From Vicinamibacterales bacterium (GTDB lineage: Bacteria > Acidobacteriota > Vicinamibacteria > Vicinamibacterales > JAMQPK01), in NCBI GenBank assembly GCA_036556585.1, contig DATBJG010000415.1, positions 131 to 64,130 of the forward strand: 64,000 nt of DNA, written 5' to 3'. Of this stretch, positions 23,392 through 61,908 are shown in pieces. The stretch's first letter is position 1. The number at the start of each line of letters is the position of its first letter. A program made the position numbers and the translations under genes. The notes under the pieces were generated by a model. That model was not told where the DNA came from. It saw only the letters and a program-made list of their open reading frames with translations, and ran no database searches.

Positions 23392-23393
23392 AG

Positions 23394-23455
23394 AAAAAGG
23401 GGTCGGGAGTCTTTTTTGTCCAAGAGTCAGCAAAAAAGACTCCCGACCCCTTTTT
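23394..23455. terminator. Perfect 24-bp inverted repeat hairpin (14-nt loop) directly after wzt, bidirectional intrinsic-terminator-like
   Basis: aaaaaggggtcgggagtctttttt (23394-23417) is the exact reverse complement of aaaaaagactcccgaccccttttt (23432-23455). It starts 3 nt after the wzt stop codon. Confidence 0.7.
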
Positions 23456-23476
23456 CGTTTTCGTGGAGTCATTGCC

Positions 23477-23962
23477 GTGCCCGTGCTGACCCACGACGAG
23501 GCTCTTGCCTGGGTGGCTCGACTCCGCCACCACGGTCAACAGATTGTCTTTACCAATGGGGTCTTCGACATTCTTCACCCGGGCCACGTTCGATATCTTC
23601 AGGAGGCACGGCGGCACGGCGACGCGCTCATTGTGGCCATCAACTCCGATCGATCGGTGCGGAGTGTCAAGGGCGAGGGGCGACCGATCGTTCCTCAGGC
23701 CGAACGCGCCGAGGTCTTGGCGGCGCTCCTTCCGGTTGATGCCGTGGTTGTCTTCGACGAGGACACTCCGTTTCAGATCGTTTCCCTTCTTCAGCCAGAC
23801 GTGCTGGTCAAAGGCGCCGACTGGGCAGCCGACCGCATCGTCGGGCGTGAGATCGTCGAAGCACGGGGCGGAAGGGTCGTTCGTGTCCCGATTGCCGAGG
23901 GCTATTCGACGAGTGCGATAATCGGAAAGATCGAACAAATCGGACGCGAGTCCAGGAACTGA
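23477..23962 (+). CDS. hldC: Stand-alone cytidylyltransferase-fold nucleotidyltransferase resembling RfaE domain II / HldC (D-glycero-beta-D-manno-heptose-1-phosphate adenylyltransferase)
   Basis: 161 aa with a GTG start. Contains VFTNGVFDILHPGHVRYL (the HxGH motif), AINSDRSVRSVKGEGRPIVPQAERAEVL and LVKGADW, which closely resemble the HldE C-terminal domain. Confidence 0.78.
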   Translation: MPVLTHDEALAWVARLRHHGQQIVFTNGVFDILHPGHVRYLQEARRHGDALIVAINSDRSVRSVKGEGRPIVPQAERAEVLAALLPVDAVVVFDEDTPFQIVSLLQPDVLVKGADWAADRIVGREIVEARGGRVVRVPIAEGYSTSAIIGKIEQIGRESRN

Positions 23963-23975
23963 CAGCCCTTCAGCT

Positions 23976-26900
23976 GTGCCCATCACCACCTCTCTCTCGT
24001 TGCAGGCTCTGCTCAAGGCCGCGATTGCCCGAAGCGGGATGTCGGTCGCGGCACATCGAATTGCCGGGTTGACGCCGTCTGCACAAGCGCTGGCCGTTGC
24101 CGGTGCCTGTTCCCGAAGCGCGACCGTCCTGCTGGTAGTGCCTGGGGACGCTGACGTGGACCGGATGACCACGGACGTCCGATTTTTTGTGGCCGCGATT
24201 GAAGGATTATCCACACCGGCGGTGGACCAGGCAGTCCTGCCGTTTCCCTCCCTGCAGATCGATCCCTACCGGGCACTCGCGCCCCATTTTCGCGTCGCGT
24301 CCGCCCGGGCCCGCGCCCTTCACGCCCTCGCATCGGGCACAGCTCGAGTGGTCATTGCATCGGCGGCTGCCCTGCTCCCACGGGTGAGCCCGCCTGCACG
24401 ACTCCTCGGTGCCTCCGTGGAGCTGAAACCAGGTCAGGAGATCTCCCCGCAGGATCTGGCGGCGGTGCTTGTGGATGCAGGATTTACACGAGAAGACCCT
24501 GTCGACGAGCACGGTGAGTACTGCATTCGCGGCGGGATCGTGGACGTCTATCCGGCGGGCGAGGCCCAACCCGCTCGGCTCGAGTTCGTCGGCGACACGA
24601 TTGAATCGATCAGGCGCTACGACCCGGCCACGCAGCGCTCGATTGCCCCCCTCGATCAGCTGACGGTCGTTCCTCTCCGGGAGGTGTTCGATCCCCCGCC
24701 GGTGTCGGGCAGCGTGTTCGACTATCTCCCCCATGACACGGCCCTTTACCTGAGCGAACGAGACGATATCAAAGCGCATGCCCTGAAGATCGTCGAGCAG
24801 ATTGCTGCCAGTCACGCGGAGGTCGTCGAAACGAAGGGGGACGAATCTCCCGATCCAGGATCGCTCTTCATCGAATGGTCGGAGGTCGAGAACCAGTTTG
24901 CGCGCGCGACCGAGCTCAGTCAGCTCGCCGTCGACCAAACCAGTCATGACGGGGCAGAAGGGGCCTCGCACCACGTTGGGACGCAGCCAACGCCTGAATT
25001 TCGTGGCCGAATTGCGGATTGGGCGGCAGAGGTCCGGCGGGCTCGGGAACGCAGCGAAACGGTGCTCTTCGTCGCGGCGGGCGCCGGCAGAGCCGAACGC
25101 ACGGTCGAGTTGCTGGCAGAGTACGAGCTGCGCGGTGTTCAGCTCGATCGCGCCGACGATCTCCACACCGCCGCTGTTCTGGTTGCGACCGGCGATCTGT
25201 CGCGGGGCTTCCGGCTGCCAGTGGCCGAGCTGCAGATCTTTGCCGAGGGCGATGTTTTCGAAGAAGACCGGCGGCAGGCCGAGCGCCGCCGGTCACTTGC
25301 CAAGACGTTCCTCTCCGATCTGCGAGATCTCAAGCCGGGAGACCTCGTGGTTCACGTCGACCATGGCATCGGAAAGTTCATTGGTCTCAAACAGATTGCG
25401 CTTGGCGCGGGCAGCTCGGTCACTCAGGAGTTCATGGAGCTCCGCTATGCCGGCGAGGACAAGCTCTTTGTCCCGGTCGAGCGGCTCGATCTCGTCCAGA
25501 AGTACAGCGGTGCCACGCATCCCCCCCTCGATCGTCTCGGCGGCACCTCCTGGGAACGCGCCAAGACGAGAGTTCGCAAGGCCATGCGGGACATGGCCGA
25601 GGAGCTGTTGAAGCTGTACGCCGCCCGAAAGGCCGTCACCGGGCATGCCTTCAACACCGACACGCACTGGCAACAGGAGTTCGAGGACGCCTTCGAGTAC
25701 GAGCTGACGGTCGACCAGGCAGCCGCCATTGCCGACATCAAGAAAAACATGGAGCAGCCGTTTCCGATGGACCGGCTTCTCTGCGGTGACGTTGGGTACG
25801 GCAAGACCGAGGTGGCCATGCGTGCGGGCTTCAAGGCCGTAATGGACGGCAAGCAAGTTGCGTTTCTTGCACCGACGACGGTTCTTGCGTTTCAGCATCT
25901 CAAGACACTGAAAGAACGCCTGGCCGGCTTCCCGATTTCGGTGGACATGGTCAGCCGGTTCCGCAGCAAGGCAGAGCAGACCCAGGTTCTTGCCGATCTG
26001 GCAGCGGGTAAGGTGGACATCATTGTTGGCACACACCGACTCCTGTCGAAAGACGTGAGTTTTCGCGACCTCGGGCTGCTCGTCGTGGACGAGGAACAGC
26101 GGTTCGGGGTTGCCCACAAGGAAAAGATCAAGCAACTTCGTCACAAGGTCGACGTCCTGACGATGAGCGCGACACCCATTCCGCGGACGTTGAACATGTC
26201 GCTGGCGGGTATCCGCGACATGTCGATCATCGAAACGCCCCCGAAGGACCGACTCTCGATTCAAACCAATGTCGTCAAGTTCGACCAGCAAGTCATTACG
26301 CGCGCCATCCGCAACGAGCTGGCGCGCGGCGGTCAGGTGTATTTCGTTCACAACCGCGTGGAGTCGATTTTCTCGATTGGCAATCTGGTGACCAAGCTCG
26401 TCCCGGAAGCGCGGGTGGCGGTGGCGCATGGGCAGATGGGCGAAGAAGAGCTCGAGCGAGCCATGATGGATTTCATCGCCCAGAAGTTCGACGTGCTGCT
26501 AGCCACCACGATTATCGAGAACGGGCTCGATATTCCCAATGTCAACACCATCATCGTCAATCGGGCAGACAGGTACGGGCTCTCGCAGCTTTATCAACTC
26601 CGTGGGCGCGTTGGTCGCTCCGATCGTCCGGCGTACGCGTATCTCCTCATTCCCCCGGAAGATTCTCTGTCTCCCGTGGCGCGCAAGCGACTTGCGGCCA
26701 TCAAGGAGTTCAGCGATCTTGGCAGCGGATTTCGTGTGGCGGCATTGGATCTCGAGATTCGGGGGGCCGGGACGCTGCTTGGAGGCGAGCAGAGCGGGCA
26801 TATCGAGTCGGTCGGGTTCGAGATGTATATGAAGCTCCTCGAGCAAGCCGTCCGCGAGCTGAAGGGCGAGGAGCTCGAAGAAGAAGTGCGCGCTGTTGTG

Positions 26901-27512
26901 AATTTGCGGGTCGATCTGCGCATTGACGATGGGTATGTTCCCGAAATGAATCAGCGGCTGATTCTCTATCGTCGGATGGCTGCGGCACGGAGCGAGCGCG
27001 AGCTGGAGGAAGCGCTGGGGGAAATAAAGGATCGGTACGGGGAGCCCCCAGCGTCAGTCCTGCAGCTCGTCGACTATGGTCGAATCCGCGTTCTGGCAGA
27101 TCGGCTCGGGATTGAATCCATCGACCGCGACGGGCAGGTCGTCCACTTCAAGTTCCGGCCCCAGGCCAAGGTAGATCCCACCAGGCTGGTCGCCCTGGTG
27201 CGTCTACAGCCAGGGCTCTCCCTTTCACCTCCAGTCACGTTGAAGCTGGATCTCCGACAAGCCGTAGCTGCGTCCGCCAACCGGGACGAGCCACCAACGT
27301 CTGCTCAACGAATCCGGCCGAAAGGATCAAAAAGGGGTCCCGGGTCCGGGACTTCAGCGTCGTGGTGGACGACCAGGGCCACGAGCGGGACCGTGGAACC
27401 GGGTTTCAGCCGGGAGGAGATTCTGAAGCCCCAAAAAGAAGACCCCCGGGGACCGCACGGCGTCCTAACCCTCGTGGGCGATTTGCTGGCGGCGTTGGGA
27501 ACGGCCCACTAA
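23976..27512 (+). CDS. mfd: Transcription-repair coupling factor Mfd
   Basis: 1178 aa. The helicase motifs are LLCGDVGYGKTEVAMRA, DEEQRFGV and the TRG-motif region. The CarD-like region includes VVHVDHGIGKFIGL. Confidence 0.95.
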   Translation: MPITTSLSLQALLKAAIARSGMSVAAHRIAGLTPSAQALAVAGACSRSATVLLVVPGDADVDRMTTDVRFFVAAIEGLSTPAVDQAVLPFPSLQIDPYRALAPHFRVASARARALHALASGTARVVIASAAALLPRVSPPARLLGASVELKPGQEISPQDLAAVLVDAGFTREDPVDEHGEYCIRGGIVDVYPAGEAQPARLEFVGDTIESIRRYDPATQRSIAPLDQLTVVPLREVFDPPPVSGSVFDYLPHDTALYLSERDDIKAHALKIVEQIAASHAEVVETKGDESPDPGSLFIEWSEVENQFARATELSQLAVDQTSHDGAEGASHHVGTQPTPEFRGRIADWAAEVRRARERSETVLFVAAGAGRAERTVELLAEYELRGVQLDRADDLHTAAVLVATGDLSRGFRLPVAELQIFAEGDVFEEDRRQAERRRSLAKTFLSDLRDLKPGDLVVHVDHGIGKFIGLKQIALGAGSSVTQEFMELRYAGEDKLFVPVERLDLVQKYSGATHPPLDRLGGTSWERAKTRVRKAMRDMAEELLKLYAARKAVTGHAFNTDTHWQQEFEDAFEYELTVDQAAAIADIKKNMEQPFPMDRLLCGDVGYGKTEVAMRAGFKAVMDGKQVAFLAPTTVLAFQHLKTLKERLAGFPISVDMVSRFRSKAEQTQVLADLAAGKVDIIVGTHRLLSKDVSFRDLGLLVVDEEQRFGVAHKEKIKQLRHKVDVLTMSATPIPRTLNMSLAGIRDMSIIETPPKDRLSIQTNVVKFDQQVITRAIRNELARGGQVYFVHNRVESIFSIGNLVTKLVPEARVAVAHGQMGEEELERAMMDFIAQKFDVLLATTIIENGLDIPNVNTIIVNRADRYGLSQLYQLRGRVGRSDRPAYAYLLIPPEDSLSPVARKRLAAIKEFSDLGSGFRVAALDLEIRGAGTLLGGEQSGHIESVGFEMYMKLLEQAVRELKGEELEEEVRAVVNLRVDLRIDDGYVPEMNQRLILYRRMAAARSERELEEALGEIKDRYGEPPASVLQLVDYGRIRVLADRLGIESIDRDGQVVHFKFRPQAKVDPTRLVALVRLQPGLSLSPPVTLKLDLRQAVAASANRDEPPTSAQRIRPKGSKRGPGSGTSASWWTTRATSGTVEPGFSREEILKPQKEDPRGPHGVLTLVGDLLAALGTAH

Positions 27513-27530
27513 TAAAGGTAAGATTCCGAT

Positions 27531-28583
27531 ATGCGCAAGTGTGTTGCAGTATTTGCCGTTGTTTTCGCCCTCGCCACCGCCGGCCCCTCTGGAGAGATCC
27601 TCGAGCAGATTCTGGTCAAGGTCAACGGCGAGATTCTGACCAAAACCGACCTCGAACAGCGCCAGCTACGCGCGCTGCGAGACCGGGGCGGGCTCGATCC
27701 CTCGACGGCCACGGCGTCCGATCTGAAGCGCGCGGTGGCGGAGATCACGCCGCTCGTGCTGGTCGGTGCAGTCGACGAGATGCTGCTCGTCCAGCGCGGC
27801 CGCGAGCTTGGTGGATCCCTGAGCGACGAACAATTCAAGGGCATCCTCGAGAACCTGCGAAAAGACAACAACCTGGAGAACGACGCGCAGTTCCAGGCTG
27901 CGCTCAAACAGGAAGGGTTGACGATCAACGATCTGCGTCGCAACATCGAACGGTCCGCGATCATCAACCGCGTGCAACAGGTCGAGATCATGTCGAAGAT
28001 CAGCGTGACCGAAGAGGAGTCACGTGCCTACTTCGACAGCCGCCCGAACGATTTCAAGACTCAACCCGGCATCACGTTGCGCGAGGTGCTGGTGAGCGTT
28101 GGCTTGGAGCAAGGGGGCTTGAACGTCGGCAAGGACGAGGAGGCGAAGGCCAAGGCCGAAGAATTGCGGGCTCGGGCCGTCAAGGGCGAGAGCTTCGAGA
28201 AGCTGGCGGCCGAACATTCGGAGGCAGCTTCGAAAGCTAACGGCGGGCTGATTGGACCCATCAGCCGCGAGGAACTGGCCCCGGCGTTTCAGCAGCTCAT
28301 CGATCCGCTGAAGCCCGGGCAGATCACGTCCGTCGTGCGTTCCCGCCAGGGCTGGCAGTTCTTCAAGCTCGAGATGAGGACCGAGTCCGATCGCCTGACG
28401 TACGAACAGGCAAAGGGTCAGATTCAGGATCGTATTGCCAACGAGAAGCGCGAAGGCGAGTTGAGAAAGTACCTGGAGAGCCTCCGTCAGCAGGCGATTA
28501 TCGAGTGGAAGAACGAGGAGCTCAAGAAGGCGTACGAACAAGGGCTCGAGCAACGAACGAAAGAACCCCCGGCCCGCGGATAA
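27531..28583 (+). CDS. Periplasmic SurA-like chaperone / PpiC-type peptidyl-prolyl isomerase
   Basis: 350 aa with a signal peptide (MRKCVAVFAVVFALATA), a SurA N-terminal-like region (ILVKVNGEILTKTDLEQ) and a parvulin-like segment (GGLIGPISREELAPAFQQLIDPLKPGQITSVVRSRQGWQFFKL). Confidence 0.75.
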   Translation: MRKCVAVFAVVFALATAGPSGEILEQILVKVNGEILTKTDLEQRQLRALRDRGGLDPSTATASDLKRAVAEITPLVLVGAVDEMLLVQRGRELGGSLSDEQFKGILENLRKDNNLENDAQFQAALKQEGLTINDLRRNIERSAIINRVQQVEIMSKISVTEEESRAYFDSRPNDFKTQPGITLREVLVSVGLEQGGLNVGKDEEAKAKAEELRARAVKGESFEKLAAEHSEAASKANGGLIGPISREELAPAFQQLIDPLKPGQITSVVRSRQGWQFFKLEMRTESDRLTYEQAKGQIQDRIANEKREGELRKYLESLRQQAIIEWKNEELKKAYEQGLEQRTKEPPARG

Positions 28584-28585
28584 CC

Positions 28586-29134
28586 GTGTCGGACCGAGAA
28601 CAAACGGATTCATCAATCGTTGCCGGCGCCGGCCTGACGGATGCCGATGTTCGGTGGTTTGCGATCTGGACCAGATCGCGGCACGAGCAGGTCGTTCGCC
28701 AGCAGCTCGAGAAAAAGGGTTTCGAATCGTTCCTGCCCACGATTCCCCGCTGGAGCCGCTGGAAAGATCGCAAGAAAAAGATCGATTGGCCGCTTTTTCC
28801 GGGCTATTGCTTCGCCCGGTTCGTCCCCGCCTCCACCCTGGCCATTCTCAAATGCACGGGGGTCGTCAATATTGTGTCGTTCGAGGGGAAACCTGCGCCT
28901 ATTCCGGACCACGAGATTGATGGTATTCGCCGCCTGGTGACGAGCGATCTGCAGTACGACCCATGTCCTCTCATCCATGAAGGCATGATGGTCGAAGTCT
29001 CCCACGGCGCCTTGAAAGGCGTGATTGGCCGGCTCGTGCGCAAGGGCGCACACGCCCGTCTCGTACTCTCGGTGGACCTCATCGGCCAGGCGGTGTCGGT
29101 CGAAGTGGACGCCGCGGACGTCAAGCCATACTAA
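28586..29134 (+). CDS. Specialised NusG paralogue (RfaH/UpxY-like transcription antiterminator)
   Basis: NGN-like region WFAIWTRSRHEQVVRQQLEKKGFESFLP...PLFPGYCFARF followed by a KOW-like region GMMVEVSHGALKGVIGRLV. The GTG start at 28586 is chosen because the track ORF start (28505) lies inside the upstream gene. About 182 aa and far shorter than housekeeping-operon context would suggest; no secE/rplK neighbours. Confidence 0.7.
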   Translation: MSDREQTDSSIVAGAGLTDADVRWFAIWTRSRHEQVVRQQLEKKGFESFLPTIPRWSRWKDRKKKIDWPLFPGYCFARFVPASTLAILKCTGVVNIVSFEGKPAPIPDHEIDGIRRLVTSDLQYDPCPLIHEGMMVEVSHGALKGVIGRLVRKGAHARLVLSVDLIGQAVSVEVDAADVKPY

Positions 29135-29181
29135 CTGGTGGTCGGCGGTCAGTGGCCAGATAACTGATAACCTGGAACCCC

Positions 29182-30222
29182 ATGCCCAAGATCGGCGCGC
29201 TCACGCTCGAATCGCCGTTCGTTGTTGCTCCTATGGCCGGGATGACCGACACGGCGTTCCGGCGATTGGTCAAGCGACAGGGCGGGTGTGGTTTGGTCGT
29301 CACGGAGATGGTGAGCTCCGAGGGGCTTGTCAGAGGCATCGATCGGACGCTCGAGTACGCCGAGTACACCGAAGAAGAACGACCCGTGTCGATCCAGATT
29401 TTCGGGGGCGATCCCGCCAAGATGGCCGACGCCGCTCGCATTGTCGAGGGGATGGGCGCCGACATCGTGGATGTGAACATGGGATGTCCGGTCCCCAAAA
29501 TTGCCAAGCACAACGCTGGTTGCAGTCTGATGCGCGAGCCCGCACACGCGGGCCACGTCATTGAAGCGATGGCCAGAGCGGTGAAGATTCCCGTCACCGT
29601 CAAAATGCGAGCGGGATGGGACGAACGAAGCCTGAACGCGCCGGAGCTCGCGCGACGAGCCGAGGACGCCGGTGCGGCGGCCGTAGCCGTGCACGGGCGG
29701 ACGGCCGCGCAGTCCTACACAGGGATGTCCGACTGGGATCTCGTTTCCAGAGTTGCCGACGGGCTGAACATTCCCGTATTTGGAAGCGGGGACTGCGTCG
29801 AGCCGGGCCAGATTCTCCAACGCCTGAACGGCGGTCGGGTGAGTGGCGTGTTGGTCGGACGTGGGGTGCTGCGCAATCCGTGGATCCTTGCACAAGCCCA
29901 GGATCTCGTTGCCGGCAAGACCGCGAGGGTCGTGAACCCGGAGGACCGCCGCCAGTTTCTCATGGAGTACATGGAACTTCTGCTCCACGAGCGCGTGGAC
30001 GAGGCCGCGGGCTTCCGCCACCTTGCTCCGGGCGACCAACGATTACCAGCCCGAGGCCGCGAGCGTTGGGTGATCAACAAACTGCGGGCGCTCATCGCCT
30101 GGTACAGCAAGGGCCTCGAAGGCGGCGGACAGCTTCGCGTGGCCATCAACGCAGCCCAGTCGATTCCGGAAACGCGAGACATCATCGAGCGATTCTTTTC
30201 CCAGCCAGTCGCCGCTTCCTGA
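29182..30222 (+). CDS. dusB: tRNA-dihydrouridine synthase
   Basis: 346 aa with the Dus family motifs APMAGMTDTAFRRL, DVNMGCPVPKI and VTVKMRAGW. Confidence 0.88.
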   Translation: MPKIGALTLESPFVVAPMAGMTDTAFRRLVKRQGGCGLVVTEMVSSEGLVRGIDRTLEYAEYTEEERPVSIQIFGGDPAKMADAARIVEGMGADIVDVNMGCPVPKIAKHNAGCSLMREPAHAGHVIEAMARAVKIPVTVKMRAGWDERSLNAPELARRAEDAGAAAVAVHGRTAAQSYTGMSDWDLVSRVADGLNIPVFGSGDCVEPGQILQRLNGGRVSGVLVGRGVLRNPWILAQAQDLVAGKTARVVNPEDRRQFLMEYMELLLHERVDEAAGFRHLAPGDQRLPARGRERWVINKLRALIAWYSKGLEGGGQLRVAINAAQSIPETRDIIERFFSQPVAAS

Positions 30223-30455
30223 GATCTGAACTTCCAAGTTTTTCCTTCGATTCAATACCGCTGCGCGTTAGTGCCGGAAATGTGTATCATTTGCACACCG
30301 AAAAGTATTCTGATGGATACACCGATAATTCCCTTAGAAACGCGAACTCCGTCCGCACAGCTGCGGTCGCCGTTTGTCCTGCAGCGGCAACCCGGGTTCG
30401 AGAGTGGGCCTTCGCAGCTCTTCTTGTGACTCACAGAGCGGAGCCTCGCTTAGAT

Positions 30456-31076
30456 ATGGTCATTAGACCAAATAGATCCTCCGCTTTGCTTGTTGGTCTG
30501 CTTCTGGTCAGTCTGACAAGGTGCTCACAGCAGGCGAATCAGAGTGACTTGCAACCGAAGTACGACGCTAAGACCGGGAAACTCGGTCAATTGACTTACG
30601 ACTCAGACTCCAACGGTAAACCTGATGCTGTCAGTTATATGGATGGATCTGAGATCGCGAGGATTGAACTCGACAAGGACGAAGATGGTCTGGTGGATCG
30701 CTGGGAGTACTACGGAACCAATCGACAGCTTGTCAAAGTCGGCATTTCTAGGTCAAATAACGGAAAAGTCGATGCTTGGATTTTTGAAGGAGCCAAGGGT
30801 TCCGTCGACCGCATTGAGATCTCGACGCGCCAGGATGGCAAGGTCAACCGGACCGAGTTCTATGAAAAGGGCGTCCTGACCCGAACCGAGGAAGATACCG
30901 ACGCCAACGGAGTTGTGGACAAGTGGGAGACCTATCGAAACGGCGTCTTGAGCAGCGCAGCATTTGACCTGAACGGCAGCGGCCGTCCTACGCGCCGATT
31001 GACGTATCAGTCGGACGGCAGTCTTCAAGGGGTGGAGACGGACGCCGCTGATCAACCGGCGGTATCACGCCCATGA
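30456..31076 (+). CDS. Putative lipoprotein built from about six DxDxDG-type (Ca-binding-loop-like) repeats
   Basis: The ATG at 30456 gives MVIRPNRSSALLVGLLLVSLTRC followed by 24-aa units such as DKDEDGLVDRWEYY, SRSNNGKVDAWIFE and DTDANGVVDKWETY. The track ORF 29616..31076 is an upstream read-through artefact. The stop overlaps the next gene's start (ATGA). Confidence 0.75.
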   Translation: MVIRPNRSSALLVGLLLVSLTRCSQQANQSDLQPKYDAKTGKLGQLTYDSDSNGKPDAVSYMDGSEIARIELDKDEDGLVDRWEYYGTNRQLVKVGISRSNNGKVDAWIFEGAKGSVDRIEISTRQDGKVNRTEFYEKGVLTRTEEDTDANGVVDKWETYRNGVLSSAAFDLNGSGRPTRRLTYQSDGSLQGVETDAADQPAVSRP

Positions 31077-32062
31077 GCAGCAGCGAGTTCCATACGCAAG
31101 CCTCATCGTCCCGCATGCAAGCGCTCACGCAGCAGGTGGCGAAAGCCGCAGGCGGCCGTGACCATGTCCTGATTACCGGCGAGCCAGGCACGGGCAGGGA
31201 AGCCGTGGCGCGCGAGATTCATCGCCGGTCGTCCGCAACGGCGGGATTCGTCAAGGCGGCAAGCACCCATGCGGCGCTGGAGACGCTGGAGCGCGATCTG
31301 TTTGGCTTCCAGTTGGGTCGCACCGCGGGCGAGGAGCGTCGAAATCTCGAACGGATTGCGAGAGGCGGCCAGTTGCTTGATGCAATTGGCGGAACGCTCT
31401 TCCTCGAACATCTGACCGAAATCCCCGCGCGGATTCAGGCACGTCTGGTGAGGCTGTTCCGAGATCGCGAGGCGATGGTCGTGCAAGACCGCTCCTCGGT
31501 TGGGTTTGACGTGCGCGCGATTGCGGCTGTCGATGCGGCGTACGATCAGGCCGTCGAAGAGGGTCGGGTCAGGGGTGACCTCCATCGGGTGATTTCCGCA
31601 ATTCGCATTGACGTGCCTCCTTTGAGAGAGCGGCGCGAAGATATTCCCGGCCTCGCGGCACATTTTCTGACCGTGATTGGGAGCAGGTCTTCTGTTCCTC
31701 CAAAGACACTCAGCGAACCCGCGCTGCAGCTGCTGACCGCGCTGCCGTGGCCAGGCAACGTGAGAGAACTCGAGCGTCTCTTGACCGGCCTTGCACAGCG
31801 CGTCAAAACCGACGTCATCCGACTGGAGGACGTCCTGTCCAGCATTCAGCTCGATGGCCGCTCCATCCCATCCGCCGCCGGTGGGACGCTGCGTGAGGCA
31901 CGCGCACGGTTCGAGCGAGAGTACATCGCGGCCGCGCTCGATCAACACAGTGGTCGTATTCCGGACGCCGCGCGAATGCTCGGTATTCAGCGCACCAACC
32001 TCTACCGAAAGTTGAAACGCCTCAAGATTCCCATCGACCGACGACGCTCCATCACCCCATAG
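31073..32062 (+). CDS. Sigma54-interaction-domain (AAA+) / Fis-HTH transcriptional regulator with degenerate catalytic motifs and no sensory domain
   Basis: 329 aa. EBP hallmarks are retained: PPLRERREDIPGLAAHF, WPGNVRELERL and the C-terminal HTH AARMLGIQRTNLYRKLKRL. Walker A reads GEPGTGRE, Walker B reads GGTLFLEHL, and the GAFTGA position reads FQLGRTAGE. Confidence 0.8.
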   Translation: MSSSEFHTQASSSRMQALTQQVAKAAGGRDHVLITGEPGTGREAVAREIHRRSSATAGFVKAASTHAALETLERDLFGFQLGRTAGEERRNLERIARGGQLLDAIGGTLFLEHLTEIPARIQARLVRLFRDREAMVVQDRSSVGFDVRAIAAVDAAYDQAVEEGRVRGDLHRVISAIRIDVPPLRERREDIPGLAAHFLTVIGSRSSVPPKTLSEPALQLLTALPWPGNVRELERLLTGLAQRVKTDVIRLEDVLSSIQLDGRSIPSAAGGTLREARARFEREYIAAALDQHSGRIPDAARMLGIQRTNLYRKLKRLKIPIDRRRSITP

Positions 32063-32067
32063 CTTGC

Positions 32068-33066
32068 ATGCCTGACTCAGGCATAGCCGTTGTCTGCGGA
32101 GCTGGCGGCTTCATTGGAGGGCACCTCGTCGGGCACCTCCTGGAGCATCGTCGGTTACGCGTGCGCGCTGTTGACGTCAAGCCGGGTCATCAGTGGCACC
32201 AACGCCACCGCGCTGCCGAAAATCTGGAGCTCGACCTCTCTGAGCTGGGGTCATGCCGTCGTGCCCTGGTCGGAGCTGCTGAGGTCTACAACCTTGCCGC
32301 TGACATGGGGGGCATGGGGTTCATCGAGCGCAACAAGGCGTTGTGCATGCTGAATGTCCTCATTAACACCCATTTGCTCCTGGCAGCGCGCGACGAGCGT
32401 GTGCAGCGGTTCTTCTATGCATCTTCGGCGTGTGTCTACAACGCTTCCCGACAGGCCTCGCCGGAAGTTACACCGCTTCGCGAAGAAGACGCGTACCCCG
32501 CAATGCCGGAAGACGGGTATGGCTGGGAAAAGTTGTTCGGCGAGCGCATGTGCCGTCACTTCGACGAGGACTTTGGTCTGAACACGCGCGTGGCGCGCTA
32601 CCACAACGTGTACGGTCCGTTCGGCGCGTACGACGGCGGCCGCGAAAAGGCTCCTGCGGCAATCTGCCGCAAGGTTATCGAGGCCAAGAGGTCTGGCCGC
32701 CATGAGATTGAAATCTGGGGAACGGGCAACCAGACCCGAAGTTTCACTTACATTGCCGACTGTCTCGAGGGTACCGCCAGGCTGACCGAAAGCACTGTCT
32801 GCGAACCGGTGAACGTGGGGAGTTCCGAGCGGGTGACGATCAACCAGCTTGTCGACATGGTGGAAACCATCGCTGGTATACGGTTGACTCGCCGATACAA
32901 CCTTTCCGCCCCGAATGGTGTCAACGGTCGCAACAGCGACAACACCAAAGTTCGCGCCTTGCTCGGCTGGGAGCCCACGACTCCTCTCGTTTCCGGAATG
33001 GAGGCGACGTATCGGTGGATCCACGACGCGATGCATGTTCCGACCAGAGGTGCCGTGTGCGCCTGA
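32068..33066 (+). CDS. NAD-dependent sugar-nucleotide epimerase closely resembling GDP-mannose 3,5-epimerase
   Basis: 332 aa with a Rossmann motif (GAGGFIGGHL). There are long identities to the plant/bacterial GME pattern as I remember it: NLAADMGGMGFI, RFFYASSACVY, GGREKAPAAICRK, QTRSFTYI, EPVNVGS and NGRNSDN. Confidence 0.72.
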   Translation: MPDSGIAVVCGAGGFIGGHLVGHLLEHRRLRVRAVDVKPGHQWHQRHRAAENLELDLSELGSCRRALVGAAEVYNLAADMGGMGFIERNKALCMLNVLINTHLLLAARDERVQRFFYASSACVYNASRQASPEVTPLREEDAYPAMPEDGYGWEKLFGERMCRHFDEDFGLNTRVARYHNVYGPFGAYDGGREKAPAAICRKVIEAKRSGRHEIEIWGTGNQTRSFTYIADCLEGTARLTESTVCEPVNVGSSERVTINQLVDMVETIAGIRLTRRYNLSAPNGVNGRNSDNTKVRALLGWEPTTPLVSGMEATYRWIHDAMHVPTRGAVCA

Positions 33067-34325
33067 TCGCGGCCGACCGATCGAAGCATTGCATGGTGGC
33101 AGCATGCCTGGCCGTTTTCGTGTCGGCCAGTCAGGCGGCTGCCCAGTCACCACCGGCAGGGGAGCCTCCATCGCCGTTCCAGTTGAAAAGCGGTGCGTTC
33201 ACCGTGACGCCGGCGGTTCGACTCGTGGATGTAGGGGTCGAGACGAACGTCTTCAGTACTGGTGAACGCGCCTCTGATTTCACCGCGACCGTCGAGCCAC
33301 AACTCGAAGCACGAATTCAGCGGACACGTTTCGACGTTCGTGCCACAGGTCGCGCTGGCCTCGTGTACTACCAGGAGTTCGCGAGTGAACGTGCGTTCAA
33401 TCCAGGGGTCCGTCTGCAGGCCGAGCTCCGCAGGAGCTCACGGCTCGCGTTCTATGGCGATGCCGACGTCGGTTATACCAACGGGCGATCAGGCCCAGAG
33501 GTCGATGCGCGGGTCCGCAGTTTCGTCCGGCTGTTCAAGGCTGGAACCCGAATCGGCGGTCACAAGCTGCAGCTTGACGTGAACGGATCGTACACGGACG
33601 TCGAGGTGGACGAATCCGAGGAATTCATGCATGTCCAACTGGAGGACACGCTCAACCGTACTGTGCAACTGGGGTCGGTCAAGCTCCTTCATCACTTGAC
33701 GCCGTACACCGGCTTGACGTTCACGGCCGAAGGACTGCAGCAACGGTTCCCCCGGGCACCCGAACGAGACATTGATTCGGTCAGCGGCACGGTCGGTGTC
33801 GACCTCAGTCCTCAGGCGCTCATTGGCGGGACTGCCGCGATCGGCTATCGCTCGGCGAACCCGTTGCACGACATCACGCCCGAGTTCGCGGGCCTCATTT
33901 ACCGTGGCGGGATCAGCAGTACGGTGCGGGATCGACTCTCCCTGTCGGTCGGCGCCGAGCGCGATATCGATCCTTCGTACCGGTACGACGCGCCGTACTA
34001 CGAGTACGACCTGTACGAGGCCGGCGCGCAACAGGTGCTCTGGCGTCGGCTCGATGTGGGAATCAGCGGGTCTCGCACGAAGATCAAGTATCACGCTTTT
34101 ACAAGCGGTGTGTTCGAGGGTGACACACGCGAAACATTGGACAACCTGACGGTGAGCGTCGGACTGCGCATGACTCGGCACAACCGCGTGTCCGGCTACA
34201 TCTCACAGTGGCGACGTGTGAACGGCGCCAATCCCTACAAAGACATTCAGGTCGGCATGATGGTGACGGTCGGCCGCGTGTCGGTCAGCGAACGTGGCGT
34301 TTTTCTGAACGGTCCCACGAGATGA
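33057..34325 (+). CDS. Secreted protein, candidate outer-membrane beta-barrel associated with polysaccharide export
   Basis: Signal peptide (..MVAACLAVFVSASQAAAQ) followed by about 400 aa of alternating-polarity, Gly/Tyr/Arg-rich segments typical of a barrel. The start is either GTG 33057 or ATG 33093. The stop overlaps the wza start (ATGA). The function is inferred from context. Confidence 0.5.
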   Translation: MRLIAADRSKHCMVAACLAVFVSASQAAAQSPPAGEPPSPFQLKSGAFTVTPAVRLVDVGVETNVFSTGERASDFTATVEPQLEARIQRTRFDVRATGRAGLVYYQEFASERAFNPGVRLQAELRRSSRLAFYGDADVGYTNGRSGPEVDARVRSFVRLFKAGTRIGGHKLQLDVNGSYTDVEVDESEEFMHVQLEDTLNRTVQLGSVKLLHHLTPYTGLTFTAEGLQQRFPRAPERDIDSVSGTVGVDLSPQALIGGTAAIGYRSANPLHDITPEFAGLIYRGGISSTVRDRLSLSVGAERDIDPSYRYDAPYYEYDLYEAGAQQVLWRRLDVGISGSRTKIKYHAFTSGVFEGDTRETLDNLTVSVGLRMTRHNRVSGYISQWRRVNGANPYKDIQVGMMVTVGRVSVSERGVFLNGPTR

Positions 34326-35221
34326 CAGAGGAATCTGGAATGGGAAAGCGCTCTCGAGGGTGTCGCGGGGCGACGGTCAAGCTCCTCGGATCTCTTGCAG
34401 CAGCCATCTGGTTGTCGGCGGCTGCGGTCACGCTGGCGCAGTCGCCCGCTGCGCCGGCTCCTGGTCGTGCCGATTACGTGATTGGCGTGCAGGACATTCT
34501 CAACATCACGGTCTGGGAGCATGAAGACCTCGACGGAAAGTTCACGGTTCAGCCCGACGGAACGATAACGCTGCCGCTCATAGGACGGCTGGCGGCGGCG
34601 GGCCTCACGATTCGTGAGTTTGAAACTGACCTGGTTCGGGCACTGTCCGAGGGGTTCATTCGACAACCACGTGTTGCCATCACGTTCGATCAGATTCGAG
34701 GCCGGCGCGTCTTCATTTTTGGCAATGTGGCAGCGCCCGGCACGTACCCGCTGACCGAAGGACAGACGTTGATCGAAGCGCTGGCCAAGGCTGGCTATGG
34801 TGTCGCCTCGGAGGCGGTCGTCGTACGACCGAAGCATCCGTCAGGTCCGAAATTGCCGGAGCATGCCAGCGACGGAGAGGTGCTGCGAATCAACTTGCGT
34901 GAGCTGGAAAAAGACGTGCAGCACGGATCGCTCGGACGCAACGTGATTCTGCACGATGGCGACACGGTGTTCGTGCCGCGCGACGACCCCACACGAATCT
35001 TCGTGACCGGCCACGTGCGTAACCCCGGAGCGTACTCGATTGCTGAGGGTACCACCGTGCTGCAAGTGCTTGCCCTGGCCGGCGGGGCCACAGAGGAAGC
35101 CGCGATCAACCGTCTCAAAGTCCTGCGAATTGTCGAAGGCAAACAGCAGTCGATCAAAGTCAAGCTGTCCGACCCAATCCGCGCGGGCGACACCCTTGTG
35201 ATTCCCGAAAGGTTCTTCTGA
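34322..35221 (+). CDS. wza: Polysaccharide export (OPX/Wza family) protein, short form
   Basis: About 299 aa with a signal peptide, a Poly_export motif region (YVIGVQDILNITVWEHEDLDGKFTVQPDGTITLPLIGRLAAAGLT) and two SLBB-like segments. It ends ...GDTLVIPERFF with no further C-terminal segment. An alternative ATG lies at 34340. Confidence 0.85.
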   Translation: MTEESGMGKRSRGCRGATVKLLGSLAAAIWLSAAAVTLAQSPAAPAPGRADYVIGVQDILNITVWEHEDLDGKFTVQPDGTITLPLIGRLAAAGLTIREFETDLVRALSEGFIRQPRVAITFDQIRGRRVFIFGNVAAPGTYPLTEGQTLIEALAKAGYGVASEAVVVRPKHPSGPKLPEHASDGEVLRINLRELEKDVQHGSLGRNVILHDGDTVFVPRDDPTRIFVTGHVRNPGAYSIAEGTTVLQVLALAGGATEEAAINRLKVLRIVEGKQQSIKVKLSDPIRAGDTLVIPERFF

Positions 35222-37548
35222 TGTCCGATTCCCTGGTTCAGGGTCCTGACGAGAGGCCTCGGCCGACGGTGGTGCATCCACACCCCCACTCACGCGCGAC
35301 CCCGTGGACGCCCGCACTGGTCGATCTGCTCGGCGGACACCCGGGAGAGTCCCGGTCGTTGTTCGATTGGCGGGAATGGATCCGGACATTACGACGACGC
35401 TGCTGGCCGGCCCTGACGGTATTTGTCGTCGTACTCATCGGAGCGTTCTTTCACGCCCTGACCCGCGTCCCCGTCTACCAAGCGCGAGTACGTGTCCTGA
35501 TTGAACCGAATCGGGCCAACATGACGGGTTTGACCGATCCACTCGAAGCGGACTACGCGGAGGCAGACTTTCTGACCCAGTTCATGATTCTCCAGAGTCG
35601 ATCGCTTGCACGACGAACCATGGAGACGCTGGGAGCCTGGGACCAAACAGGCGAGACGCCGCCGCCAGTGCCGGGGTCCTGGAGCGCTTTCGTTCAGACA
35701 CTCGAGGATGGGGCCCGCCGAACGTTTGCTTGGACACGCGAACGCGCCGGTTTTGCTTCTCCGACCAGCCCTGCCGAGCCGCCGGCCCCCGACGAAAGTG
35801 TGGTCGACACGGCAAAGATCAACAGCTTTTTGACCGGGCTCCGTGTGATTGCGATTCCGGGCAGCAGGCTTGTCGACGTGTTCTACGAATCCCGGGATCC
35901 TCATGTGGCGTCGACAACGGCCAACACCATCGTTCAGCAATTCATCCAGCAGAACCTCGAATTGCGGTTTCTCGCCTCCAAGGAGGCCACCGAGTGGTTG
36001 AACGAGCGGCTTGGTGAACAACGCAAGGCGCTCGATGCATCAGTAGAGGCGCTGCGCGCTTACCAGCGGAAAAACGGGATTGTGCCGGTGGGTGAGCAGG
36101 CCAGCGTGACGGTTCAGAAACTCACCGATTTGACGACGGCCTATACGAAGGCAAAGACAGACCGCATCGAAAAGGAGACGCTGTTTAACCAGCTCGAGAT
36201 GTCGGCGAGAGATCGTAGCAGCCTCGATGCGTTTCCCGTCATTGCCAACAATCCGATCGTCCAGGAGCTCAAGTCTGAGCTCATCTCTCTACAGCGCCAG
36301 GAAGCGCAGCAGTCCGAAAAGCTTGGTGACCGTCATCCCACCCTCATCAAGACACGCGAGGGTGTCCGCAACGCCGAAGGGAGGCTGCGCGTCGAGATGA
36401 CCAAGGCTGCCGAATCGGTCCGCGCCGAATATCAGTCAGCCAGGGCGGCCGAATCGAGCCTCGGCCGGGCGCTCGAGTCACAACGTAAGGAGATGCTCTC
36501 GCTCAACCGGAGCGACGTCGAGCTCGCGGTCTTGCAGCGTGACATGGAGAGCAACCGGCAGATTTACGACAGCCTGCTTCAGCGTGTGAACGAGTTTGGG
36601 GTTACTCGCGAACAGCGGATCAGCAATCTGAGGATTGTCGACCGCGCCGAAGTGCCGCAGGCTCCGCTGGCCACGGGTATCCGCACGGACCTGAGGCTCG
36701 GCCTGCTCGGCGGCCTTCTGCTCGCAATCGGGATGGCATTTCTCCTGGAGCGTCTGGACAATCGCGTCAAGCTTCCAGAACAAATCGGAAGCGAACTGGG
36801 ACTCACGTTTCTCGGCATGGTCCCGCTTGTCGGTGAGGACGAGCTGACGCGCCCCCTGCTCGTCGATCGACCTGTCCCGGCGGGATTTGGGGAAGCTATT
36901 CGTGCATTCCGTACGAATGTTCGCCTGTCGATTGCTTCCGATGGCTTACGGTCGGTCGTGGTCACCAGTGCGTGCGCCGGCGACGGCAAGACCCTCGTCG
37001 CCAGCAACCTCGCCTTAACGCTTGCGATGGCCGAGCAACGTGTTCTCCTCATCGACGCCGATCTGCGGCGGCCGAGCCTGCATACCACCTTCGACCTCAA
37101 GAAGGAACCCGGGTTGACCAACTTCCTCATCGGAGATGGTCAGGCTGCCAGCATCATCCGACGAACCCGCGTACCCGGATTGCATATCCTGACGTCGGGG
37201 ACCCTCCCGCCAAATCCCTCGGAGCTCCTCGACTCGAGACGATTCAAGAAGTTCCTGTTGCAGCTCGGCAAGTACTACGACTGGGTGGTGCTCGATTCAC
37301 CGCCCGTCATGCCGGTCACAGACGCCATTGTCCTGGCCGACGTCGCGTCGGGTGTGATTTTTGTGACCGCGGCAGAGACGACCCCGCTACCGGCGGCGCG
37401 TAGCGCCATCGAGCAGTTGCGACGCGCGCCAGCTCCAGTACTGGGCGCGGTGTTGAACCGGGCAGACCTGAAGCGCCGCAGCTACTACTACACCAAGTAC
37501 TACAAGCGCGACTATGAGGGGTATTACGAGCGTGCCACCTCAGCCTGA
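35221..37548 (+). CDS. wzc: Polysaccharide co-polymerase / tyrosine autokinase (Wzc/GumC-type PCP-2a)
   Basis: 775 aa with two TM segments flanking a long coiled periplasmic region. The kinase Walker A is SACAGDGKT, Walker A' is LLIDADLRRP and Walker B is VVLDSPPV. The C-terminal tail RRSYYYTKYYKRDYEGYYERATSA carries 8 Tyr. Confidence 0.88.
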   Translation: MSDSLVQGPDERPRPTVVHPHPHSRATPWTPALVDLLGGHPGESRSLFDWREWIRTLRRRCWPALTVFVVVLIGAFFHALTRVPVYQARVRVLIEPNRANMTGLTDPLEADYAEADFLTQFMILQSRSLARRTMETLGAWDQTGETPPPVPGSWSAFVQTLEDGARRTFAWTRERAGFASPTSPAEPPAPDESVVDTAKINSFLTGLRVIAIPGSRLVDVFYESRDPHVASTTANTIVQQFIQQNLELRFLASKEATEWLNERLGEQRKALDASVEALRAYQRKNGIVPVGEQASVTVQKLTDLTTAYTKAKTDRIEKETLFNQLEMSARDRSSLDAFPVIANNPIVQELKSELISLQRQEAQQSEKLGDRHPTLIKTREGVRNAEGRLRVEMTKAAESVRAEYQSARAAESSLGRALESQRKEMLSLNRSDVELAVLQRDMESNRQIYDSLLQRVNEFGVTREQRISNLRIVDRAEVPQAPLATGIRTDLRLGLLGGLLLAIGMAFLLERLDNRVKLPEQIGSELGLTFLGMVPLVGEDELTRPLLVDRPVPAGFGEAIRAFRTNVRLSIASDGLRSVVVTSACAGDGKTLVASNLALTLAMAEQRVLLIDADLRRPSLHTTFDLKKEPGLTNFLIGDGQAASIIRRTRVPGLHILTSGTLPPNPSELLDSRRFKKFLLQLGKYYDWVVLDSPPVMPVTDAIVLADVASGVIFVTAAETTPLPAARSAIEQLRRAPAPVLGAVLNRADLKRRSYYYTKYYKRDYEGYYERATSA

Positions 37549-39073
37549 AGCCCGCGCGTTGTTCAGAAACGTGGGGAGTCGTGCCGTTCTGTTGCCACAC
37601 TCCCAAGACGTGGCGACAGGTGTCGACGGCACGACATGGGCGCGCGAAGCTCGACTCGGGCCCAAGCGCCAGGAGATCGTCTTTGGCCATGCCGTCCTTT
37701 GTGCGGATGCGCTCGTTCTGATGGCAAGCTTTCTCATCGCGTACATGGTTAGAGACGGGCTCGTGTGGTATGGCGGCCTGCTTCCGCTGCAATCCCATGT
37801 GTGGGTGATTGGATTGATTCTTCCAATCTGGCTCATCCTCGCGCAGGTCATGGGCCTCACTGACTCCACCACATACTTGCGGTCTCGACCTCCCCTCGTG
37901 CAAACGCTCAAGGTGCACGCAATCTCCGGGCTGTTGCTGTTGAGTGCGCTGTACCTGCTCAGAGCGACCGACGTCAGCCGATTGTTCATGCAGACGTTTC
38001 TCGTCATTGGCGGTGGAGTTTTCATGCTCGAGCGCATCGCCATCCGCGCCACACTGGGGCACCTTGGCAGGCATCGCCCAGGCCATGCGCGGCGCGTGCT
38101 CATCATCGGCACCACGCCGGAGGCCGCACGACTGCATCGGTTGCTCGGGCGTCGGCCGCATTGGGGCGCTGAAATCGTGGGGTTTGTCACAGCCGGCTCG
38201 GCGCCGCTCAACCACTTCTCGGGGCTCCCGGTGATGGGGAACGTCGACGATTTCGAATCGGTGCTCGAAGAACACGTCCTGGACGAGGTGGTGCTGGCCG
38301 ATGGCAGCCTCGATCCGCAGAGTGTCGAACAACTGGCGCAAACCTGCGTTGAGCGCGGGTTGACATTCGATGCGCTCGTCCGGATGCCCACCATGACCCC
38401 GGCTCGACATCATGCAGAGATGCTTGGCGAAGGTCTCTACCTCATGTCGCTCGAAACGGCCCCACAGAACCCGGGCATGCTCTTCATCAAGCGCGCCATT
38501 GACGTGGTGGGGGCCTGCGCGGGCCTGGTCCTGTTGACGCTGGCGTTCGTGATCGTGGCGCCACTCGTTCGGCTCGAGTCACGAGGACCGGTCATCTTTC
38601 GACAGCGGCGCATTGGCAGGAACGGCCGGTACTTCGCGCTTTACAAGTTCCGCACCATGAGAAGTGATGCCGCGTCCCAGAAGGCGCAGCTGACCGACGC
38701 CAATGAAATGCGCGGCCATCTTTTCAAGATTCGTAACGATCCTCGCGTCACTCTGGTGGGCCGATTCCTGCGGAAGACGTATTTCGATGAGCTGCCGCAG
38801 TTCTGGAACGTGCTCAAGGGCGACATGAGCCTGGTCGGCACGCGACCGCCAACGCCAGATGAAGTTGCCCGCTATTCACCCCATCACCGCCGGCGGTTGA
38901 GTGTGCGCCCCGGGATGACCGGCCTCTGGCAGATCGCGGGGAATGGGCGTGTCCGCGACTTCGAAGAAGTCGTTCGTCTGGATTGCGACTACATCGAGCG
39001 ATGGTCGATCTGGCTCGACCTTTCCATCCTGATGCGGACCTGTCTCACAGTTGCACGGCTGGGCGGCCACTAG
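37514..39073 (+). CDS. Polyprenyl-phosphate hexose-1-phosphate transferase (WbaP/EPS sugar transferase family), initiating enzyme
   Basis: 519 aa with N-terminal TM segments. The C-terminal bacterial sugar transferase domain shows FALYKFRTM, DELPQFWNVLKGDMSLVGTRPP and PGMTGLWQI. The exact start is uncertain: ATG 37514 overlaps wzc by 35 nt, and an in-frame GTG lies at 37532. Confidence 0.85.
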   Translation: MRGITSVPPQPEARALFRNVGSRAVLLPHSQDVATGVDGTTWAREARLGPKRQEIVFGHAVLCADALVLMASFLIAYMVRDGLVWYGGLLPLQSHVWVIGLILPIWLILAQVMGLTDSTTYLRSRPPLVQTLKVHAISGLLLLSALYLLRATDVSRLFMQTFLVIGGGVFMLERIAIRATLGHLGRHRPGHARRVLIIGTTPEAARLHRLLGRRPHWGAEIVGFVTAGSAPLNHFSGLPVMGNVDDFESVLEEHVLDEVVLADGSLDPQSVEQLAQTCVERGLTFDALVRMPTMTPARHHAEMLGEGLYLMSLETAPQNPGMLFIKRAIDVVGACAGLVLLTLAFVIVAPLVRLESRGPVIFRQRRIGRNGRYFALYKFRTMRSDAASQKAQLTDANEMRGHLFKIRNDPRVTLVGRFLRKTYFDELPQFWNVLKGDMSLVGTRPPTPDEVARYSPHHRRRLSVRPGMTGLWQIAGNGRVRDFEEVVRLDCDYIERWSIWLDLSILMRTCLTVARLGGH

Positions 39074-39158
39074 GTCGGATTTCGGAGCTGGGCTTTCGGC
39101 TCTCGAGTCGCAACAGCCCAGGATCAGAGATCACGTAGCCGAAAGGCGAAAGCCGAAT
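39074..39158. repeat. Intergenic heptamer-family repeat block with its two halves in opposite orientation
   Basis: gtcggat ttcggag ctgggct ttcggct ctcgagt ... agccgaa aggcgaa agccgaa. The left half is in TCGG orientation and the right half in CCGA orientation. Confidence 0.55.
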
Positions 39159-44578: not shown

Positions 44579-44590
44579 CAACCGCAAGAC

Positions 44591-46752: not shown

Positions 46753-46800
46753 CGCGCCAGGGCGGGGTCAGCCCGCCCCAACAATCGGGTCCCCCTCCCG

Positions 46801-49462: not shown

Positions 49463-49467
49463 CCGAC

Positions 49468-52333: not shown

Positions 52334-52338
52334 AAGAA

Positions 52339-53514: not shown

Positions 53515-53536
53515 ACGGGCCGGATCCGGGTTCAGC

Positions 53537-55869: not shown

Positions 55870-55873
55870 TGGT

Positions 55874-56488: not shown

Positions 56489-56510
56489 CAACACGAGGCC
56501 GCCGGTTCGC

Positions 56511-58468: not shown

Positions 58469-58473
58469 CACCG

Positions 58474-61889: not shown

Positions 61890-61908
61890 GTCACCAACGA
61901 GGGATGTG

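Follow-up and report, generated by a model that had tools for sequence, protein, structure and literature searches.

The closest described relatives of the gene reported here are the UpxY proteins of Bacteroides fragilis (Chatzidaki-Livanis 2010; Saba et al. 2024, PMC11685472), each encoded by the first gene of the polysaccharide operon that it controls and recruited at leader pause sites termed opsX (Saba et al. 2024, PMC11685472). Class-1 opsX sites carry a hairpin in the non-template DNA, 5'-YGCGNAGCR (opsE being CTGCGAAGCATA), which has the same GCG..AGC stems as the E. coli ops sequence GCGGTAGC; the NGN domain of UpxY carries out the recognition, to which duplex DNA upstream contributes as well, and 9-42 nt separate the pause from the first start codon (PMC11685472). 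E. coli RfaH, by contrast, is encoded away from its targets, long envelope-polysaccharide operons on which it acts in trans, whereas LoaP of Bacillus velezensis and TaA of Myxococcus, likewise specialised NusG paralogues governing long biosynthetic operons, are encoded inside their target clusters, and LoaP recognises an RNA hairpin (PMC11685472). Here we analyse one 64-kb window (the whole stretch of DNA under study) from a Vicinamibacterales bacterium, a member of the Acidobacteriota, which holds the gene of a NusG paralogue assigned to the UpxY family and, 1.3 kb downstream of it in a 233-nt gap ahead of a polysaccharide locus, a candidate ops-like loading element. We favour, with modest confidence, a reading in which the paralogue is made from a housekeeping block, loads in trans at this ops-like site and sustains the processivity of RNA polymerase along the glycan operon. 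The features that the argument needs are the following.

28586..29134, plus strand: specialised NusG paralogue gene, 182 aa, NGN and KOW regions, assigned to the UpxY family (open reading frame (ORF), Pfam, NCBIfam, PDB search, AlphaFold, Foldseek)
23477..30222, plus strand: tightly packed housekeeping block cytidylyltransferase-mfd-surA-nusG(SP)-dus, nusG(SP) being the paralogue gene, with gaps of 13, 18, 2 and 47 nt (gene map, Pfam, conserved order)
30282..30340, plus strand: promoter-like region of the glycan operon, with a GTGTATCA box, a degenerate -35 ATGGAT and a -10 TAGAAA (17-genome alignment, copy in the closest relative, L001)
30425..30448, plus strand: candidate ops-like loading/pause element TGTGACTCACAGAGCGGAGCCTCG in the leader, 8 nt before ATG 30456 (leader conservation, position weight matrix (PWM), family-wide association)
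30438..30444, plus strand: GCGGAGC core of the element, of the GCGNAGC type for which a mini-hairpin in the non-template strand is predicted (read from the sequence; literature)
30456..62403, plus strand: polysaccharide locus of ~29 co-oriented genes (Pfam, NCBIfam, gap map)

The paralogue ORF runs from GTG 28586 to a stop at 29134. No other in-frame start exists between the stop of the SurA-like gene (TAA 28581-28583) and the NGN domain, which confirms the spacing of 2 nt already reported in a first-pass annotation of the stretch. The same annotation had described a 182-aa protein with NGN and KOW regions, which our analysis bears out. Pfam places the NGN domain (PF02357) at residues 23-115 with 75.4 bits, and no separate KOW match was found in Pfam at E <= 0.01 for the 182-aa product; the NCBIfam alignments to UpxY, RfaH and NusG, which extend to residues 177-179, take in the KOW part. 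An AlphaFold model built on a 66-sequence alignment that included Nitrospirota homologues (mean predicted local distance difference test score, pLDDT, 89; a shallow 38-sequence alignment gave an unusable pLDDT of 62) predicts an NGN domain and a beta-barrel KOW, the latter at a pLDDT of ~95 with strands at 124-128, 134-138, 147-153, 156-163 and 168-174 making up a five-stranded C-terminal barrel. RfaH has an autoinhibited alpha-helical KOW, whereas the state predicted by AlphaFold for the paralogue is the barrel; a second state may exist besides it.

The first-pass annotation had assigned the protein to a joint RfaH/UpxY/LoaP class, which is correct, and within that class it falls to the UpxY family: NCBIfam NF033644 (UpxY family) is matched over model positions 1-162 of 164 with 114.6 bits against a cut-off of 100, whereas the RfaH models TIGR01955 and PRK09014 (78.8 vs 144.5 and 54.1 vs 124 bits) and the LoaP model NF033641 (50.6 vs 125 bits) stay below theirs. 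Orthologues are named 'UpxY family transcription antiterminator [Vicinamibacterales bacterium]' by NCBI, and close homologues are abundant in soil metagenomes. The product is thus an already-annotatable member of a known family, the one to which the B. fragilis proteins belong. That the ORF could instead be the organism's housekeeping NusG in an unusual location would suit its NGN and KOW architecture and very high sequence conservation, but the protein reaches only 31.2 bits on the housekeeping equivalog model TIGR00922 (cut-off 135.7), its orthologues carry the UpxY name, and RfaH is its best match in a search of PDB sequences (2e-8), slightly better than NusG among solved structures. The gene is also without secE and rplK, the first-pass annotation having correctly noted that it lies outside the secE-nusG-rplK context; mfd and the SurA-like gene stand upstream and dus downstream. 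We regard this explanation as effectively refuted already, and on its sequence we classify the product as a UpxY-family specialised NusG paralogue, distinct from RfaH, LoaP and housekeeping NusG. A Foldseek search with the AlphaFold model returned NusG and recruited RfaH as top matches, the NGN match to RfaH 8pen_P having a root-mean-square deviation of 1.6 A over 96 alignment columns. No NusG-like ORF other than 28586-29134 was found in the window.

The presumed target of the paralogue, the operon at 30456..62403, encodes a lipoprotein, a degenerate regulator resembling bacterial enhancer-binding proteins (bEBP-like), an epimerase, an outer-membrane barrel, Wza, Wzc and a priming phosphoglycosyltransferase, together with ~14 glycosyltransferases, methyl- and acyltransferases, Wzm/Wzt and a Wzy-like protein; wza, wzc and the priming transferase lie at 34-39 kb, and the locus continues beyond 62 kb. 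The first-pass annotation had seen no ops- or JUMPStart-like element and had proposed motif discovery in the 30223-30455 leader. We aligned the intergenic regions between dus and the lipoprotein gene of 17 genomes and found a conserved promoter, TTGACA-N16-TAGAAT, and then a sharply conserved block, TGTRAsTsAsrGGGCGAAGC, in otherwise diverged leaders. The corresponding PWM finds one site in the 64-kb window, at 16.5 bits (next best 0.1; shuffled maximum 13.3), and one plus-strand site in each of 17 related loci, every checked site being in a lipoprotein-gene leader. The promoter-to-element distance in relatives is ~25-190 nt and the lipoprotein start follows ~2-70 nt after the element. All 12 relatives with wza/wzc downstream of dus have the element, and it is missing from those whose lipoprotein gene abuts dus without polysaccharide genes. 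A simple promoter scan does not flag the window's promoter copy, which is too degenerate (8/12 matches), and sigma-70 and terminator scans showed no enrichment.

In the closest relative (L001, paralogue 94% identical; 11800-12100) the element is kept as TGGGACCCACCGAGCGAAGCCATG, a weaker copy of 10.7 bits that falls below the shuffled maximum. The lipoprotein gene that follows it there is truncated and is succeeded by an AT-rich stretch of ~200 nt.

With the validated Bacteroides ops sites the element shares the GCGNAGC core and conserved sequence upstream of it, and it has a Y/R step 3 nt past the predicted hairpin. Like B. fragilis opsX, it would combine a GCGNAGC non-template hairpin core with a conserved upstream part in a multipartite signal of ~24-40 nt near the first start codon; like the ops (GGCGGTAGnnTG) and JUMPstart signals of RfaH, it would pair a GCG..AGC non-template mini-hairpin with a pause-like Y/R step, although the hairpin loop is 2 nt in E. 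coli and 1 nt in the window. The bases flanking the window's GCGGAGC are A and C, as opposed to Y and R in YGCGNAGCR. From the Y/R step we infer a pause position that would put the first G of the hairpin at -10 of the consensus pause. The literature suggests that a mini-hairpin may form in the element, GCGNAGC sequences making exceptionally stable DNA mini-hairpins with melting temperatures of 76 C (GCGAAGC) and 73 C (GCGGAGC) (PMC13037366). LoaP reads an RNA hairpin, whereas here no consistent RNA structure was seen: RNA folding of the window leader gives no special structure (z = 0.05), and in the metagenome copies described below, when a pause hairpin was sought between the 5' half of the element and the sequence preceding it, helices of >=7 bp turned up in 34.5% of copies vs 20.4% of shuffles. 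This enrichment is modest, and clear single-pair covariation is confined to one subfamily.

Searches with known signals gave nothing over the element. There is no exact match to E. coli ops GGCGGTAGnnTG in the window. A search with GGCGGTAGNNTG allowing one mismatch gave 8 matches vs 3.3 expected, all of them in predicted coding sequence, and was rejected. Rfam (the window at gathering thresholds, 20.5-40.5 kb at E <= 1, and 16 metagenome loci) returned nothing over the element and no JUMPstart, and a literature search for the motif string found nothing relevant.

The association of the element with NusG paralogues and polysaccharide genes extends well beyond the relatives from which it was defined. 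A blind metagenome scan with the pattern TGTRASYSASRGGGCGAAGC, derived from lipoprotein-gene leaders alone, recovered at least 120 loci with GC contents of 30-71%. Downstream genes were counted for the 105 of the matches listed that had >=500 nt downstream: in 59 a NusG-paralogue gene of the same orientation follows, its NGN start 29-192 nt away, 3 have a paralogue farther downstream, and 23 lead straight into Wza, Wzc, priming-transferase, barrel, bEBP or lipoprotein genes. The linked paralogues are 33-54% identical to the one in the window. When six previously unrecognised downstream ORFs were scanned with Pfam, five proved to be polysaccharide-associated (Wza-type export, flippase, Wzz/GNVR, glycosyltransferase, CarboxypepD_reg). 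Positions that the pattern leaves unconstrained are also conserved in the metagenome copies listed (T21 in 102/109, R22, Y23 in 108/109 and R24 in 100/109), and this conservation fits a G-10/Y-1/G+1 pause. In a reverse test, all four Nitrospirota UpxY-family genes found by protein similarity alone have the element, ending at the called start codon, with nucleotide-sugar or glycosyltransferase genes behind them; one of these copies has GCGGAGC, like the window. Exact copies of the GC-rich 20-mer occur in contigs with a GC content of 30-42% (L083, L097, L103 and L154), so that its range extends beyond Acidobacteriota and Nitrospirota. The first ORF downstream in those contigs encodes Poly_export (Wza-type) or a flippase in L103 and L154 and CarboxypepD_reg in L097, and has no Pfam match in L083. 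Finally, there are polysaccharide operons with the element and no paralogue gene in the recovered flanks (e.g. L130, L161, L174 and L189); for these, a loading role of the element would imply a factor supplied from another locus.

The first-pass annotation had linked the paralogue to the polysaccharide operon as a gene standing at the head of the array that it controls. The link itself is strengthened by a conserved leader motif that in other loci goes closely with genes for NusG paralogues and with polysaccharide operons; the notion that a first gene drives a 34-kb operon of its own is wrong. Species-level genomes encoding homologues of the paralogue number 330, and synteny was examined by tblastn of the window proteins against the loci of the best 80 of the 330, nearly all of them from Vicinamibacterales or Acidobacteriota metagenome-assembled genomes. 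The block wzm-wzt-cytidylyltransferase-mfd-surA-nusG(SP)-dus is present in every one of the 80 wherever the contig reaches far enough, and the lipoprotein/bEBP/barrel/Wza/Wzc genes stand behind dus in only about a quarter (~18-25/80). It follows that the paralogue gene belongs to the housekeeping block, that its adjacency to glycan genes is not conserved and, given the promoter-bearing gap between the two, that it is not the first gene of the glycan operon; any action there must hence be in trans, as with RfaH, and not in the manner of a Bacteroides first gene. The layout is thus genetically RfaH-like, and the family and the type of signal are UpxY-like. Bacteroides UpxZ, a trans-inhibitor, is encoded by the second gene, whereas here the next gene is dus (Pfam Dus, 252 bits), no direct UpxZ sequence search having been made. 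Locus-specific ops sites, one per paralogue, are the rule in Bacteroides; here a near-identical element is spread over many paralogues in more than one phylum. The window orthogroup also evolves slowly: across relatives its identities are 71-94% (mean 80%), higher than those of dus (~72%), mfd (~65%) and surA (~50%). For UpxY and RfaH, on the other hand, a rate of evolution above that of NusG has been reported (PMC7593976). A detached, UpxZ-less and slowly evolving layout is a variation that the literature anticipated (PMC7593976).

In a neighbour-joining tree the window orthogroup is monophyletic and its sister is a Nitrospirota-type group of element-linked paralogues. Two signatures, T29-R-x-R-H33-E34 (helix 1) and W59-x-D61-R62 (beta hairpin), are common to the orthogroup and the element-linked paralogues; in RfaH and UpxY these two regions make the contacts with non-template and upstream DNA (PMC11685472). 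The ops-contact residues H20, T72 and R73 of RfaH are not kept, the paralogue having Q40, C90 and T91.

From these observations we infer that the element would be a loading site, that this paralogue would be its reader, that polymerase would pause there and that the outcome would be antitermination. In the mechanism that we envisage, the paralogue would be expressed from the conserved mfd-surA-nusG(SP)-dus block and not from its target operon. RNA polymerase would initiate at the promoter in the 233-nt gap, transcribe ~100 nt and arrive at TGTGACTCACAGAGCGGAGCCTCG, where the non-template strand would expose the GCGGAGC mini-hairpin and the enzyme would probably pause 2-3 nt downstream of it. 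The NGN domain would then recognise the hairpin together with the upstream TGTRAsTsA, displace housekeeping NusG and remain bound, and the bound paralogue would suppress pausing and Rho-dependent or polar termination over the ~32-kb polysaccharide operon.

Several points weigh against this mechanism. The window's copy of the element is degenerate, scoring 16.5 of a possible 42 bits and having GAG for GGG and CTCG for TGTG, and the -35 box of the leader promoter is poor. Terminator and repeat scans found no excess of terminator-like sites inside the glycan operon, and no long inverted repeats at all, so intrinsic terminators calling for antitermination are not in excess there. When the DNA of the element is folded with a nearest-neighbour model no mini-hairpin emerges, and energies of 0 to -1.2 kcal/mol do not improve on those of shuffles; this result is uninformative because sheared G-A mini-hairpins lie outside the model. 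Our literature search found no experimental work on an Acidobacterial NusG paralogue. The partners conserved with the paralogue are mfd, surA and dus, and with glycan genes behind dus in only about a quarter of relatives the adjacency of the glycan operon is weak evidence; a cis-type paralogue elsewhere in the genome could be the true reader of the site. Moreover, positions 22-24 of the element are ATG, GTG or TTG in 47/108 copies, 23 of which open an ORF of >=100 codons, and AGGG is usable as a Shine-Dalgarno sequence, so that part of the conservation of the element may be translational.

These last points favour a different explanation, in which the 24-nt element is an operator for a regulator (for example the degenerate bEBP-like protein) or serves translation initiation or other RNA-level control of the first gene. 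A Shine-Dalgarno-like AGGG in an element that often ends in a start codon is what translational control would lead one to expect, and bEBP-like genes flank ~15 of the 120 metagenome loci listed. An inverted-repeat operator would likewise account for covariation seen in one subfamily, where an upstream box and position 10 of the element change together (GTCAC paired with GTGAC in 15/22; CTCAC paired with GTGAG in 13/30). Against this explanation, however, GTA or ATA, which are not start codons, occupies positions 22-24 in 24/108 copies, and the distances to the promoter and to the start codon are variable. Among the matches listed, the element lies upstream of, and on the same strand as, its recognised neighbour gene with a single divergent exception (L163), and linkage to a NusG paralogue is far commoner than linkage to a bEBP-like gene (59 vs ~15). 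The element has no Rfam match, and a validated ops site has exactly the same core. We consider control by an operator or at the level of translation or RNA quite improbable.

The subfamily just mentioned comprises ~27 of the loci listed (e.g. L088, L091, L102 and L147) and has the box GGGTTAG[G/C]TCACA 16-18 nt before the element; many of its copies also have a GTAAGT-like box ~20-25 nt further upstream. The GGGTTAG[G/C]TCACA box could be part of a pause hairpin, a promoter or an inverted-repeat operator. A sigma-54 promoter reading of the element itself was rejected, the GG/GC spacing being unsuitable.

A second explanation accepts the paralogue as real and takes its adjacency to the glycan operon as incidental: the protein would have other targets, or a core role with mfd-surA-dus, and the element would be read by another paralogue elsewhere. 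The mfd-surA-nusG(SP)-dus block, found in all 80 relatives that cover it, mostly with unrelated genes after dus, is in keeping with this, as is the unusual conservation of the orthogroup, which would suit a core factor; most copies of the element elsewhere, among the matches listed, have their own paralogue gene immediately downstream. Set against this, the 64-kb window holds no second NusG-like ORF, the lipoprotein-led operons of Vicinamibacterales never have a cis paralogue, and element-bearing operons without a flanking paralogue gene do exist (the four loci named above). The orthogroup, besides, branches beside the element-linked paralogues and retains their signature residues. We hold incidental adjacency to be unlikely, though it deserves to be kept in view, and retain loading in trans at the leader element as the preferred reading.

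What is new here is the candidate loading site and its consensus, found over a wide GC range in at least Acidobacteriota and Nitrospirota. A broader proposal, which we advance tentatively, is that a single ops code of ~24 nt, cc-TGTRAsTsAsrG-GCGNAGC-TRYR, is common to a large UpxY-like clade (Acidobacteriota, Nitrospirota and lineages down to 30% GC) and heads polysaccharide operons with or without the gene of the factor, the Vicinamibacterales reader having become a detached, slowly evolving core trans factor co-transcribed with mfd. Were this so, the detached reader would represent an independent RfaH-like solution inside the UpxY family. The core common to the element, Bacteroides ops and E. 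coli ops suggests that GCG..AGC non-template hairpins are an ancient and general recognition feature of specialised NusG paralogues. The Acidobacteria count among the commonest bacteria in soil, and the exopolysaccharides that they make are important for soil aggregation and for survival; to our knowledge, the transcription of their very long glycan operons has not been studied, and our literature search found no paper linking NusG or UpxY paralogues to Acidobacteria. On a practical level, a single 24-nt site with a defined GCGNAGC core is a concrete site to mutate, to footprint and to use as bait, and the consensus can be scanned across genomes to define a regulon.

The wider neighbourhood includes the chromosomal replication origin (oriC), which the window spans in the region 1120-7678. 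At 1120-6676 the minus strand carries gyrB, dnaN and dnaA, and cumulative GC skew has its minimum near 4-8 kb and climbs from ~6 kb. From 7678 onwards a plus-strand run comprises yidC-jag-mnmE-mnmG-rsmG-parAB-atpHAGD, wzm-wzt, the cytidylyltransferase gene, mfd, the SurA-like gene, the paralogue gene and dus. The first-pass annotation had placed the paralogue at the head of a 34-kb array, whereas the co-oriented run is 56 kb long and begins 21 kb upstream of the paralogue gene; since it starts at yidC right after oriC and the skew rises from ~6 kb, co-orientation is what leading-strand bias would lead one to expect. Nor does the array merely end in the glycan locus, as had been stated, for that locus spans essentially 30456 to beyond 62 kb. 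The earlier count of about 30 co-oriented genes after the paralogue, with two sizeable gaps, agrees with ours of ~31 plus-strand ORFs, the only gaps of >50 nt before 62.4 kb being 30223-30455 (233 nt) and 39074-39158 (85 nt). The second of these is a feature in its own right.

39074..39158, plus strand: second sizeable gap, with GCGAAAGC at 39146-39153, a GCGNNAGC-type mini-hairpin sequence (sequence)

The GCGAAAGC string has the same form as E. coli ops GCGGTAGC and is followed, after 6 nt, by the TTG at which the next glycosyltransferase gene starts. It could be a second loading/pause site or the product of chance; coincidence may suffice because GCGNAGC-type strings occur ~32 times per strand in the window, near a rough composition-based estimate.

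The second gene of the glycan operon (31073-32062) encodes a bEBP-like AAA+/HTH_8 protein without a receiver domain, in which the Walker A motif reads GTGR (Lys to Arg) and LFGFQLGRTAGEE replaces the GAFTGA loop. The protein is probably a degenerate regulator that does not depend on sigma-54, and similar genes flank many element-bearing loci.

The stretch just upstream of mfd (21150-23962) holds the genes for another ABC transporter pair of the Wzm/Wzt type, which has a Wzt_C domain, and for the cytidylyltransferase; these genes are kept with mfd-surA-paralogue-dus where contigs reach, and a glycan-export module is thus part of the conserved neighbourhood. A perfect 27-bp hairpin at 23393-23456, set between an A-run and a U-run (RNA minimum free energy -49.8 kcal/mol, z = -10), occupies the gap from the wzt stop (23391) to the start of the cytidylyltransferase gene (23477) and looks like a strong bidirectional intrinsic terminator; the only matches that the Rfam searches gave, to miRNA-precursor models, are on this hairpin at 23.4 kb and are spurious. 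The block that follows, 23477..30222, is probably the transcription unit expressing the factor, and the hairpin leaves ~20 nt for a promoter of mfd-surA-paralogue-dus. The 42-nt gap before wzm (21108-21150) contains short AT-rich tandem repeats resembling AGAAGACAGAAT.

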